64,000 nt of DNA from NCBI RefSeq assembly GCF_045037415.1, contig NZ_CP173438.1, one strand, 5' to 3'. The stretch is from Escherichia coli. GTDB lineage: Bacteria > Pseudomonadota > Gammaproteobacteria > Enterobacterales > Enterobacteriaceae. Positions 60,001 to 63,000 of this stretch are shown here, piece by piece. A program made the position numbers. Numbering within the stretch: the stretch's first letter is position 1; each line of letters starts with the position of its first letter.

Positions 60001-63000
60001 AATTTATAACCACGCCGTGTTGTATACGGCGGCTATCTGGAATGACCAAACGGTGGATGCGGATAACCGCATTGCCTGGTTTGAAGCGCGGACCATAGCA
60101 GGTTATCCGGTGCTGGTGAGTGAAGAAGATGGCGTAGTGACGGGATATGCCTCGTTTGGCGACTGGCGTAGTTTTGATGGTTTTCGCCATACCGTGGAAC
60201 ATTCGGTTTATGTCCATCCCGATCATCAGGGGAAAGGTCTGGGGCGTAAATTGTTAAGCCGATTAATTGATGAAGCGCGGGATTGCGGGAAGCATGTCAT
60301 GGTCGCCGGGATCGAATCGCAAAATCAGGCCTCGCTGCATCTGCACCAGTCGCTGGGATTTGTCGTCACCGCGCAAATGCCGCAGGTAGGCACTAAATTT
60401 GGGCGCTGGCTGGATCTGACATTTATGCAGTTGCAACTCGACGAGCGCACTGAACCGGACGCGATTGGATGAATCAGTCACTTACCCTTGCCTTTTTGAT
60501 TGCAGCCGGGATTGGTCTGGTAGTCCAGAACACGCTGATGGTGCGCATCACCCAGACCTCCTCTACCATTCTCATCGCCATGTTGCTGAACTCACTGGTG
60601 GGGATTGTGCTCTTTGTTTCTATTTTATGGTTTAAACAAGGCATGGCGGGGTTTGGCGAACTGGTGTCCAGCGTGCGCTGGTGGACACTTATACCTGGCT
60701 TGCTGGGATCGTTTTTTGTCTTCGCCAGTATCAGCGGATATCAGAATGTGGGAGCGGCGACAACTATTGCAGTACTGGTCGCCAGCCAGCTGATTGGCGG
60801 TCTGGTGCTGGATATCTTCCGCAGCCATGGCGTACCACTTCGGGCGTTGATCGGCCCAATTTGTGGCGCAATTTTACTTGTGGTTGGCGCCTGGCTGGTG
60901 GCCAGACGCTCATTTTAATCAGAGGATGGTACCGCCTTTGGTTAACTGTTCGTGGCGCGCTTCCATATCTTCTTTATGTTTGCGACCGTGATGAGCAATA
61001 GCGGTGCGCAAACGCTGCTGCAGGGTGTAGCGATCTTCCCGACTTAACTCCGCGTCATCGCTCAGGGCGATTAATAATTCGTTCATATGGGCAATGACGC
61101 TCTCTTCAATCGCGGCATCCACGCGCGCGATGACTTCATCCAGATGCGACATACTTTCTCCTTAGCCACTTGTGAAATTTATCGATTCATCCAAATGATA
61201 TAAGTCTGCGTGGTGCCGTCAAGCCAGTGCATAAGATTTAAAACAGAGAAAACAACAGCGCCACCGGGAAACTCATCGGCCATGTTGCCCCCACCAGAAA
61301 GGCGCTTAAGAGACGGATGCGTTTCTTATCATGAGAAAGAAACCAGGTGATAAGAAATGCGATTGCTGCCATAACCGCATAGAAAACAAGCATGTGTTGA
61401 TAGAGAGACATGTACGGGCGTCCAGCCAGATGAATAAAACGCGCGCAAATATGCGTCATTTTTTGACGTGCATCAAGTTTTTTTCACCAGTTTGAGAAAA
61501 AATCATCAAACAGCAACTTGCCCTTATCCATCTTCAGAATGAGTATTATTGCGGATTTTCTTAACCCGTACTATACACATAGGGGCAATGATAAAAGGTG
61601 GCAAAAATGAATGTTTCCAGTAGAACTGTAGTACTGATAAATGTCTTTGCTGCTGTTGGTTTGTTTACTCTTATCTCTATGAGATTTGGCTGGTTTATTT
61701 GATGTAGTGATTTTGCACGCAGCACGTACTGTCAGAGAAATCAGTGCTCTGACAGTACGCAAGATCATCTCATACTCTTACGATCTGCAATATTATCCTT
61801 AATGTTTAACCATGACGTGGCGGACGACGGTGTAATCCTCCAGCCCATAAAGTGACATATCCTTGCCGTAACCAGAAAGTTTCTGCCCACCGTGCGGCAT
61901 TTCACTTACCAGCATGAAATGGGTATTGACCCAGGTACAACCATATTGCAGCCGCGCGCTGACGCGATGCGCCCTGCCCACATCTTTCGTCCATACCGAA
62001 GATGCAAGTCCGTACTGACTGTCATTCGCCCAGTTCACCACCTGTTCTTCGCTGTCGAAGAGCGTAACACTCACTACCGGACCAAATACCTCTTTTTGCA
62101 CGATGGCATCATCCTGTAATGCGCCAGCCAGCAGCGTCGGCGCATAGTAATAGCCATTACCCTTGCGCTTTTCACCGCCAGTGATCACTTTGATGTGCCC
62201 TGTCGCTTTCGCCTCTTCTACCGCCTTGCTGACGCGTTCGAGATGCGCCAGCGAGCTTAAAGGTCCAAGCTCCGTAGACTCGTCATCCGGCGAACCCGAT
62301 TTTAACGTTGCCACCGCAGCACCGAGTTTTTCCACCAGCGTATCGTAAATGCCTTTTTGCGCGTAGATCCGACAAGCCGCAGTACAATCCTGTCCGGCAT
62401 TGTAATAGCCAAAAGTACGTACACCTTCGACCACAGCTTCAATATCCGCATCATCAAAAACAATCACTGGCGCTTTGCCACCAAGTTCCATATGAGTACG
62501 CTTAATGGACGGCGCGGTATGGCTGATGATGTGTTCCCCAGTGGCGATAGAACCCGTCAGCGACACCATCCGCACTTTGGGATGTCCGGTCAGCGGATCG
62601 CCCACCGTTTTGCCTCTGCCAAACAGCACGTTAATCACGCCAGCCGGGAAGATATCTTTCGCCAGCTCTGCCAACTTCAACGCGGTCAGCGGGGTAATTT
62701 CTGATGGTTTAAGCACTACGCAGTTCCCTGCCGCCAGCGCCGGAGCCAGTTTCCACGCAGCCATCATCAGCGGATAATTCCACGGTGCGATAGAAGCCAC
62801 GACCCCCAACGGATCGCGACGGATCATCGAAGTATGACCTTCAAGATATTCACCTGCCGCCAGACCATTCAGGCAGCGCGCCGCACCGGCGAAAAAGCGA
62901 AAGACATCGACAATCGCCGGAATTTCATCATTGAACGCACTATGCAGCGGTTTGCCACAATTACGGGACTCCAGTTCGGCAAAAACCTGACCATTTTCTT

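Follow-up and report, generated by a model that had tools for sequence, protein, structure and literature searches.

Between the stop codons of yncL and patD, in a 64-kb window of Escherichia coli (the whole stretch of 64,000 nucleotides analysed here), lies an inverted repeat that can form a long, perfectly paired stem. A reading made from the sequence alone took this hairpin to be a strong terminator shared by both genes. The question raised by the locus is whether the hairpin does end transcription from both sides, or whether it belongs to the message of the small gene yncL and marks its 3' end by other means.

Gene content of the ortT-yncL locus

We found that the gene order in this region, ydcZ-ydcY-ortT-yncL-patD, is that of K-12, and that this stretch of the window is 100% identical to strain SK1144 (features in Table 1). 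The ortT–yncL stretch was found in 5415 of 5426 complete E. coli genomes, at a median of one place per genome, and RefSeq/PGAP names both genes in each of the 64 full-length E. coli records among those listed, so that the remark in the sequence-only reading that small-protein genes are easily missed by annotation does not apply here. The identities of ortT and yncL are near certain. The locus is already known as the standard E. coli pair of genes for two small stress-induced inner-membrane proteins, whose products and stress regulation have been published and whose annotation is all but universal among complete E. coli genomes; it offers little discovery value, and the results reported here are chiefly corrective. 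The two genes had been described as lying side by side: they are adjacent, but the arrangement is divergent and not tandem, with start codons 195 bp apart. yncL and patD are convergent, as had been stated, and 96 bp separate their stop codons.

Table 1. Features of the ortT-yncL-patD region, with positions in the 64-kb window
Feature	Position	Strand	Basis or relation
ortT (ydcX) CDS, 57 aa, GhoT/OrtT-family membrane toxin	61238..61411	-	ORF, profile match, ortT in identical strain SK1144
Equivalent of weak K-12 Term-seq 3' end (1517357 plus strand, 848 reads)	61443	-	32 nt upstream of ortT ATG
Conserved block upstream of ortT, CTTGATG-N14-ACGCATAT in ortT sense	61449..61477	-	Spacer alignment, 4 genera
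Candidate yncL promoter, TTGCGG-N17-TATACA	61549..61577	+	Spacer alignment
yncL Shine-Dalgarno (SD), AAGGTGG	61595..61601	+	5 nt before ATG
yncL CDS, 31 aa, single-pass small membrane protein	61607..61702	+	ORF, profile match, yncL in SK1144
Stem-loop, 13-bp perfect stem, 9-nt loop	61725..61759	+	22 nt past yncL stop, 39 nt past patD stop
Equivalent of dominant K-12 yncL-sense RNA 3' end (1517039 minus strand)	61762	+	3 nt past stem
patD (ydcW), gamma-aminobutyraldehyde dehydrogenase	61799..63223	-	Convergent yncL neighbour
Equivalent of K-12 Rho termination region (1516753 minus strand)	62048	+	Antisense to patD, ~286 nt beyond hairpin

The ortT reading frame consists of 57 codons and a stop, with zero internal stops, and its product matched Pfam PF10753 over residues 4-57 (profile positions 1-55 of 55; E 6e-28, 97.4 bits, cut-off 22.1). 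In the translation, a basic loop, SHDKKRIR, separates two hydrophobic segments (residues 7-25 and 35-57). Both residues to which the published structural model of OrtT/GhoT draws attention, F38 and I21, are present here; the first of them was altered in an F38R variant (pCA24N-ortTF38R) (PMC4344625). Compared with the K-12 allele, 56 of the 57 residues are identical, the exception being F34L (L34 here, F34 in K-12), and L34 was also found in the OrtT orthologues of Enterobacter and Kosakonia. A 73-aa extended ORF (ATG 61459) was rejected: between genera the added region differs by a 4-nt indel, it also contains the conserved promoter-like block, and the 57-aa start is the one used in K-12 and RefSeq. 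An inverted repeat inside ortT (61319-61360, 12/13 pairs) was not counted, since other genera keep merely 3-10 of the 13 pairs.

For yncL, the frame of 31 codons and a stop matched the NCBIfam equivalog NF000537 at 30 of 30 profile positions (E 2e-20, 72.5 bits, cut-off 35), and the family PF28073:YncL is attached to YncL orthologues in precomputed annotation. YncL shares 30 of 31 residues with K-12, differing by F13V (V13 here, F13 in K-12). V13 also occurs in an O121 strain, Salmonella and C. amalonaticus, and K-12 may therefore be the holder of an unusual YncL allele. The start at ATG 61607 was preferred to GTG 61598 on the basis of SD spacing and a published remark on Salmonella; AGGTGG of the SD is invariant in nine aligned orthologous spacers from four genera. 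Both genes evolve under purifying selection between genera, with dN/dS of 0.03-0.06 for ortT and 0.09-0.27 for yncL. The sequence-only reading was thus right that both genes are intact, of 57 aa (coordinates, translation and profile match) and of 31 aa with a good, conserved SD. The two checks that it had proposed can also be answered: comparison with K-12 revealed one residue difference per protein and zero introduced stops, and tagged YncL and OrtT proteins have already been demonstrated (PMC12542507, PMC10470546, PMC4344625). YncL protein has been detected in K-12 (PMC12542507, PMC10470546), and it partly depolarises the membrane (PMC12542507).

Alignment suggests that, within the 195-bp spacer, ortT and yncL each possess their own conserved promoter-proximal block. 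The block upstream of ortT resembles a sigma-32 promoter and may function as one; sigma-E and sigma-H promoters have been predicted for ortT and heat-shock induction has been described (PMC4344625). The weak 3' end near ortT comes from K-12 Term-seq (PMC7815308 supp. 1 and 3). The candidate yncL promoter falls inside a motif, TTGCGG-N8-AACCCGTACTATA, that is invariant in 9 of 9 aligned spacers, and a C directly precedes its putative -10 hexamer (CTATACA), which is sigma-S-like. A genomic-SELEX peak of RpoS maps to the yncL/ydcX spacer (PMC5493296), and Salmonella yncL is sigma-S dependent (PMC5437024). From these features we infer the probable sigma-factor assignments of the two promoters. The two calls of the terminator scan, at 61357-61380 (minus strand, inside ortT) and 61439-61456 (plus strand, inside the ortT upstream block), were treated as chance or promoter sequence.

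A hairpin that stays with yncL

The arms of the inverted repeat, CGTACTGTCAGAG (61725-61737) and CTCTGACAGTACG (61747-61759), are 100% complementary, and the perfect 13-bp stem that had been claimed is indeed present at 61725-61759. Seven of the 13 pairs are G-C. The folding energy is -22.5 kcal/mol (z = -4.05), none of 200 shuffled sequences folded as well, and the window contains only two perfect 13-bp short-loop hairpins, this one included.

The hairpin covaries across Escherichia, Citrobacter and Salmonella. In an alignment of 20 sequences that represent the three genera, pairing holds in 86.7% of cells, as against 35-51% when the partners are slid; compensatory changes occur in 7 of 15 hairpin pairs, and the observed covariation score was reached by 0 of 500 shuffles. 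Stems are kept, and loops are free to vary. G-U wobbles in the core point to the yncL strand by 14 to 4, a weak test in which the counts include related sequences.

A perfect palindrome could also bind a dimeric protein, and the element might then act in the DNA, as a protein-binding site or REP-type repeat, and not as an RNA structure. We consider this very improbable. The arms differ between genera yet still pair, in part through G-U pairs, which in DNA would be mismatches, and an abundant RNA 3' end lies at the hairpin base. Neither arm has a second copy in the 64-kb window when up to 2 mismatches are allowed, the median being one place per E. coli genome, and an Rfam scan of 60000-64000 with E up to 1 matched no described RNA family, the Salmonella STnc families included.

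The hairpin also stays beside yncL when the downstream neighbour is another gene. An AraC-type gene takes the place of patD in Citrobacter, and within E. coli patD is not adjacent to yncL in about one fifth of the genomes; in ~1170 E. coli records the downstream neighbour is a 1.3-kb CatB-like insert, with a pseudogene ~400 nt away. Covariation in RNA and attachment to yncL point in the same direction, and we conclude that the hairpin is very likely a 3' end element of the yncL mRNA.

Possible termination at the hairpin and Rho-dependent read-through

The idea of a strong bidirectional intrinsic terminator, at which transcripts of yncL and patD would both end, draws on a perfect and stable 13-bp stem between two convergent stop codons. 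What such a terminator would also carry, a U-tract, is absent from both strands in Escherichia and Citrobacter: the stem is followed by CAAGAUCAUCUC on the plus strand and by UGCUGCGUGCAA on the minus strand. The hairpin was not among the calls of the consensus terminator scan, which accepts loops of 3-8 nt as against the 9 nt present here. Salmonella orthologues alone were found to have a U-run after the stem: their homologous stem is longer, and UAUUUUUU comes after it in the yncL sense but not in the other, and in the yncL sense it looks like a canonical intrinsic terminator. Because the U-tract is missing, efficient intrinsic termination at the E. coli hairpin is improbable.

Published transcript ends bear on the same point. 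In K-12, a dominant yncL-sense 3' end directly follows the stem (Table 1), with values of 75,264.6 and 536,300 in two rows; it appears three times in a file that spans three growth conditions (PMC7815308 supp. 1). These Term-seq data, like the Rho data below, are from K-12 and not from the present strain; the sequence is identical from the yncL stop through the hairpin into patD, and the 61-nt context of the 3' end is the same in K-12 and in the window. A strong end so close to the stem would suit a terminator acting in the yncL sense, and non-canonical intrinsic termination at a strong stem might also leave an end 3 nt beyond it. In the patD sense, no 3' end at the hairpin is present among the 15170xx positions of the K-12 Term-seq list (PMC7815308), in which patD was possibly too weakly expressed to appear, and patD and yncL are one of the convergent pairs whose transcripts have been described as overlapping (PMC12288877).

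Rho acts beyond the hairpin. The K-12 region at 1516753 has a Rho score of 16.6 (P 5e-21; PMC7815308 supp. 2), and the ratio of downstream to upstream coverage is 9/220 without treatment and 72/106 under bicyclomycin when the four unlabelled columns of that file are taken in that order. Inhibition of Rho thus lifts coverage beyond the hairpin 16.6-fold, an indirect measure based on 800-nt windows, in which part of the bicyclomycin read-through may begin upstream of yncL, for example from ydcZ. These data lend support to neither adjective of the earlier description. Against a strong terminator stand the missing U-run, the lack of a call by the scan and the read-through seen once Rho is inhibited; against a shared one stand a mapped 3' end in the yncL sense only and the retention of the hairpin beside yncL where patD is not adjacent. 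We regard bidirectional intrinsic termination as decidedly unlikely.

Another possibility is that a stem-loop without U-tracts fixes the place at which the yncL and patD polymerases meet, so that termination in both directions depends on collision. According to the preprint describing this model, release requires head-on together with trailing collisions, and such stem-loops are required for collisions to be positioned (Wang, Watters, Ju and Liu, bioRxiv 10.1101/2022.10.23.513370). The geometry fits, in that the genes converge across a gap of 96 bp that holds a stem-loop lacking U-tracts, and so do the overlapping patD-yncL transcripts. Against this, the hairpin persists with other or distant partners, such as the CatB-like pseudogene, the 3' end is detected in the yncL sense only, and Rho-dependent read-through does not form part of the model. 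Collision-dependent termination is therefore an unlikely explanation.

Taken as a whole, the data are best explained by a standard locus in which the hairpin is the yncL 3' stem-loop and read-through is released by Rho and trimmed, an account that we consider probable. The short, monocistronic mRNA of yncL would end in this hairpin as its 3'-terminal stem-loop, which would fix its stable end 3 nt past the stem; RNA polymerase that passes the hairpin would be released by Rho within the antisense of patD; and exonucleases would then trim the 3' tail back to the hairpin base, where the stem would shield the message. For Rho release followed by trimming, taken as a mechanism in its own right, we are only slightly inclined in favour, the order of events being one that we infer. 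To record the hairpin as a strong bidirectional terminator would be wrong on present evidence, and it is better seen as a clean example of how hairpins lacking a U-tract define mRNA ends between convergent genes.

Linkage of yncL and ortT

Every yncL examined, in a sample of four named genera and two more distant relatives, had a GhoT/OrtT-family gene divergently adjacent to it, usually 189-198 bp away, despite differing outer flanks. Such a neighbour was present in 16 of the 16 species-representative genomes in which the yncL promoter motif was located, beside both of the two more distant YncL representatives (63-70% identity), and at the yncL-bearing loci retrieved through OrtT; an exhaustive search of representative proteins with YncL gave 9 matches. 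One apparently divergent YncL, P0126 (74% identity), proved to be an artefact, namely E. coli DNA with C-to-T type conversion, since its contigs have a GC content of 31%, match the window at 78% identity and carry an ortT interrupted by stop codons. The consistent divergent adjacency of yncL and ortT is a mildly new point.

In K-12, OrtT is an orphan toxin that is toxic upon expression, damages the membrane and lowers ATP (PMC4344625). The neighbours of ortT are the genes for a DUF2526 protein and for YncL, and no antitoxin gene is adjacent. Its toxicity was not neutralised by GhoS, YdcY, flanking intergenic RNA or a genomic library, and the constructs described in that search did not include the yncL coding sequence itself (PMC4344625). 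Because the adjacency is so consistent, and because both products are stress-induced and act on membrane potential, YncL could be a functional partner of OrtT within a conserved two-gene cassette, whether by modulating the toxin, by acting alongside it or even by serving as its missing antidote. We think this improbable; the adjacency nevertheless offers a modest and testable starting point for explaining why OrtT, an 'orphan' toxin, lacks an antitoxin.

Comparison with known systems

The two genes correspond closely to their K-12 counterparts. ortT resembles b1445 in its position between yncL and ydcY, its length of 57 aa and an identical upstream conserved block, and differs by the conservative substitution F34L, toxicity being known for the K-12 allele (PMC4344625). 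yncL resembles b4598 in position, its length of 31 aa and an identical SD, promoter block and 3' hairpin, and differs by F13V. In Salmonella the equivalent of yncL is STnc1110/STM14_1932, which differs in that its hairpin carries a U-tract and may terminate intrinsically.

Among toxin-antitoxin loci, OrtT is a homologue of GhoT, and it shares with the type V system GhoT/GhoS and with the type I loci hok/sok and tisB/istR a small hydrophobic toxin that collapses membrane potential. ortT differs from these in lacking a GhoS-like gene and, as far as the Rfam scan and the published tests of the flanking intergenic regions go, an antisense RNA partner.

For the hairpin, the closest likeness is to the 3' stem-loops at the processed ends of Rho-terminated transcripts, a model cited by Adams et al. 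2021 from earlier Term-seq work (PMC7815308). Those transcripts, like that of yncL, have a stable hairpin without a U-tract, a 3' end lying a few nucleotides beyond the stem and, some hundreds of nucleotides further on, a Rho-dependent region.

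Layout and integrity of the ortT-yncL locus

The window derives from an E. coli chromosome, sharing 99.99% identity with E. coli strain SK1144 over its first 50 kb and 100% over its last 5.85 kb. The stretch 61150-61850 was 100% identical to many RefSeq genomes, including SK1144; of 5426 complete E. coli genomes, 5415 had a match, the median being one copy per genome. The SK1144 RefSeq gene order, mnaT, ydcZ, ydcY, ortT, yncL, patD and ydcV, is also that of K-12, and the ortT-yncL locus itself is ordinary and already known. The start codons of the divergent ortT and yncL are 195 bp apart, and the stop codons of the convergent yncL and patD 96 bp apart.

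Coordinates of the features at the ortT-yncL locus (window positions)
Feature	Position	Strand or sense	Product or composition	Basis
ortT	61238-61411	minus	57 aa	
ortT-side spacer block	61449-61477	ortT sense	CTTGATG-N14-ACGCATAT	spacer alignment
yncL-side spacer block	61549-61576		TTGCGG-N8-AACCCGTACTATAC	spacer alignment
yncL	61607-61702	plus	31 aa	
yncL hairpin	61725-61759		CGTACTGTCAGAG-N9-CTCTGACAGTACG	perfect pairing
patD	61799-63223	minus		

The sequence-only reading had placed and named both small genes correctly, as judged from their translations and from profile matches of OrtT to Pfam PF10753 (Toxin_GhoT_OrtT; E 5.9e-28) and of YncL to the NCBIfam equivalog NF000537 (E 1.8e-20). Over a 701-bp stretch, a few positions differ between K-12 and the window, and one T-run differs in length by a single T, resulting in the residue changes F34L in OrtT and F13V in YncL; comparison with K-12 revealed no stop or frameshift in either gene, so that both are intact as proposed. 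The good yncL Shine-Dalgarno sequence also held (AAGGTGG, 5 nt upstream of the ATG and kept across genera), and dN/dS values between genera of 0.09-0.27 for yncL and 0.03-0.06 for ortT showed both genes to be under purifying selection. The suggestion that such genes escape annotation did not hold: both are routinely annotated and are named in every full-length E. coli record among the matches listed. Within ortT, a 13-nt inverted repeat (61319-61331 / 61348-61360; 12/13 complementary, 16-nt spacer) pairs the FLI codons with the DKK codons; only 3-10 of 13 pairs are present in other genera, so that the repeat is probably incidental to the codons.

Several genes elsewhere in the window are damaged or missing. 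The curA gene and most of mcbR, located between mnaT and pqqU (yncD) in K-12, are absent from 59474-59953, where about 480 bp are left, annotated in SK1144 as GntR-family pseudogene fragments; the E. coli O121 strain has kept mcbR, with curA frameshifted. Based on the SK1144 annotation (position in locus L030 + 2), the window also carries a frameshifted RelE/ParE (HigB-like) toxin gene beside the intact HigA-type antitoxin gene yddM (~35058-35335), an N-terminally truncated pqqL, encoding an M16 peptidase (~21672-22589), and a diguanylate cyclase gene remnant upstream of dosP (~27870-28033).

Candidate promoters in the spacer

When the spacer sequences of E. coli, another Escherichia species, Citrobacter, Salmonella and Intestinirhabdus were aligned, two blocks proved conserved, with variable sequence between them. 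The yncL-side block can be read as TTGCGG-N17-TATACA with a C preceding the -10 element, a putative sigma-S-like promoter, and the ortT-side block appears sigma-32-like. Both readings fit earlier work, in which yncL has been tied to sigma-S and ortT predicted to have sigma-E and sigma-H promoters. For example, the Salmonella yncL mRNA, first catalogued as the sRNA STnc1110, needs sigma-S for expression (PMC5437024), and the E. coli yncL/ydcX spacer holds an RpoS genomic-SELEX peak (PMC5493296). OrtT is induced by stringent-response conditions and heat shock (PMC4344625), and YncL by minimal medium and heat shock (PMC12542507). A weak Term-seq 3' end at K-12 1517357 on the plus strand (PMC7815308) corresponds to 61443 on the minus strand of the window, 32 nt upstream of the ortT ATG and within the conserved promoter-like block; it could stem from premature termination of a transcript initiated upstream, from patD read-through or from processing.

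Distribution of the gene pair

OrtT homologues are widespread in Enterobacteriaceae. The divergent yncL-ortT adjacency was found in Escherichia, Salmonella, Citrobacter and Intestinirhabdus despite differing outer flanks: beyond yncL lies patD, an AraC-type gene together with an MFS transporter, or a GH25 gene, and beyond ortT lies ydcY, a Virul_Fac-family gene beside SrfB, or type VI secretion genes. A scan for the yncL promoter motif in one genome per species gave 16 loci, and in all of them yncL and ortT are intact and separated by about 190 bp. An exhaustive YncL search yielded only nine representatives, and the two genuinely divergent ones among them (63-70% identity) also adjoin an OrtT-family gene. 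A third, P0126 (74% identical), was rejected as a sequencing artefact: its contigs L034 and L035 (Logan SRR3359617 and ERR1356766; GC 31%, 78% identity to window 59706-63992) hold E. coli DNA that has undergone massive C-to-T type conversion, probably from bisulfite-type libraries, and such contigs create spurious "divergent homologues" in protein collections.

Enterobacter ludwigii has one ortT (L009:3037-3210), 155 bp from an aldehyde dehydrogenase gene, and Kosakonia oryzendophytica has two tandem OrtT-family genes (L010:3010-3183 and 3270-3443; 86% and 65% identity to the window protein), both species lacking yncL. Thus, among the loci examined, yncL never occurred without ortT, and ortT sometimes occurred without yncL. 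This one-sided dependence is the only new observation at the locus, and a mildly new one; most of the distribution can be put down to vertical inheritance within a rather narrow clade.

The protein detection proposed in the sequence-only reading already exists in the literature for OrtT (PMC4344625) and YncL (PMC12542507, PMC10470546). The proteic toxin OrtT damages the membrane and depletes ATP; no antitoxin was found in a search covering YdcY, GhoS, flanking intergenic RNA and a 3x genomic library, the yncL coding sequence not being explicitly included (PMC4344625). YncL is a small membrane protein whose production dissipates membrane potential and condenses the nucleoid (PMC12542507); its cleavage in vivo is RseP-dependent, and with purified RseP cleavage was not detected reproducibly (PMC10470546). 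A functional YncL-OrtT partnership is improbable, since YncL depolarises cells by itself and ortT also occurs where yncL is absent.

A conserved hairpin downstream of yncL

The perfect hairpin noted between yncL and patD is present (-22.5 kcal/mol, z = -4.05) and is one of only two perfect 13-bp short-loop hairpins in the 64-kb window, with no further copy elsewhere in the window and no Rfam match. The other, CATTAACAGGTGC-N8-GCACCTGTTAATG (3503-3536), lies just after uxaB.

Twenty sequences covering the region past yncL, from Escherichia, Citrobacter and Salmonella, all carried a stem-loop at the same place, with freely varying loops and with pairing kept by compensatory changes (Escherichia CTGTCAGAG/CTCTGACAG, Citrobacter CTGGCAGAG/CTCTGCCAG, Salmonella TTGGCGGGGAG/CTCTCCGCCGAC). 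In the 15-pair helix, 86.7% of cells were paired, compared with 35-51% when partners were slid by 1-3 columns; seven pairs had changed on both sides, and none of 500 shuffles reached the covariation score. The maintained pairing and this covariation show that the structure is under selection. In Intestinirhabdus alba (L011 / L029), the yncL-ortT pair and promoter motif are retained but the conserved 3' hairpin is missing; downstream of its yncL, a single arm-like fragment, GCCTCTCTGC, lies within a different predicted fold.

Comparison of neighbours shows that the hairpin goes with yncL and not with patD. Several Citrobacter species have an AraC-type regulator gene in the convergent position beside yncL. 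In ~1170 of 5416 E. coli records (about one fifth of complete genomes) the hairpin and patD are kept apart by a 1.3-kb AT-rich insert that contains a frameshifted CatB-related O-acetyltransferase gene; the hairpin, its loop altered, stays next to yncL. The Salmonella version alone has an extended stem with a U-run after it, in the yncL sense only. In the helix core, G-U pairs favoured the yncL strand 14 to 4, a weak support since the sequences are related. In E. coli O121 RM8352 the insert (L003:4659-5960) has ~12-nt sequences resembling each other, CTTAATATTTAC / CTTAATGTTTAAC, on its two sides; the insertion point corresponds to ~61808 of the window, which has no insert.

Transcript ends and termination

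The hairpin had been read as a strong shared terminator of yncL and patD. It has no adjacent U-run on either strand and thus misses a defining feature of intrinsic terminators, and a terminator scan did not call it. Term-seq and Rho data derive from K-12 (Adams et al. 2021, PMC7815308), with which the window is identical over the stretch that begins at the yncL stop codon, takes in the hairpin and enters patD. Their supplementary file 1, spanning three growth conditions, has three entries for a minus-strand 3' end at 1517039, labelled "antisense to patD" by Adams et al., with values of 75,264.6 and 536,300 in two of the three. This end corresponds to 61762, in the yncL sense, 3 nt beyond the 3' arm of the stem. 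No further 3' end is listed within 1517000-1517099, so that none in the patD sense was detected there. A strong shared terminator is the least supported explanation.

A minus-strand Rho termination region at 1516753 (Rho score 16.6; PMC7815308) corresponds to about 62048, 286 nt past the hairpin and within patD antisense. Its counts (220, 9, 106, 72) yield the Rho score when read as upstream/downstream coverage without and then with bicyclomycin, and were taken in that order. In addition, patD-yncL is among the convergent pairs with overlapping transcripts in MG1655 (ExcludonFinder; PMC12288877). Together, the Term-seq end, the Rho region and the overlapping transcripts indicate that the hairpin sets the mature yncL 3' end, that polymerases can pass it and that Rho acts downstream. 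The best-supported mechanism, whose order of events at this locus we infer, is thus one in which Rho would release polymerase downstream of the hairpin and exonucleases would then trim the 3' tail of the yncL RNA back to the protective stem-loop; weak non-canonical intrinsic termination and positioned polymerase collisions (bioRxiv 10.1101/2022.10.23.513370) are alternatives. Release followed by trimming to a stem-loop is also the general model for Rho-terminated transcripts cited by Adams et al. (PMC7815308).
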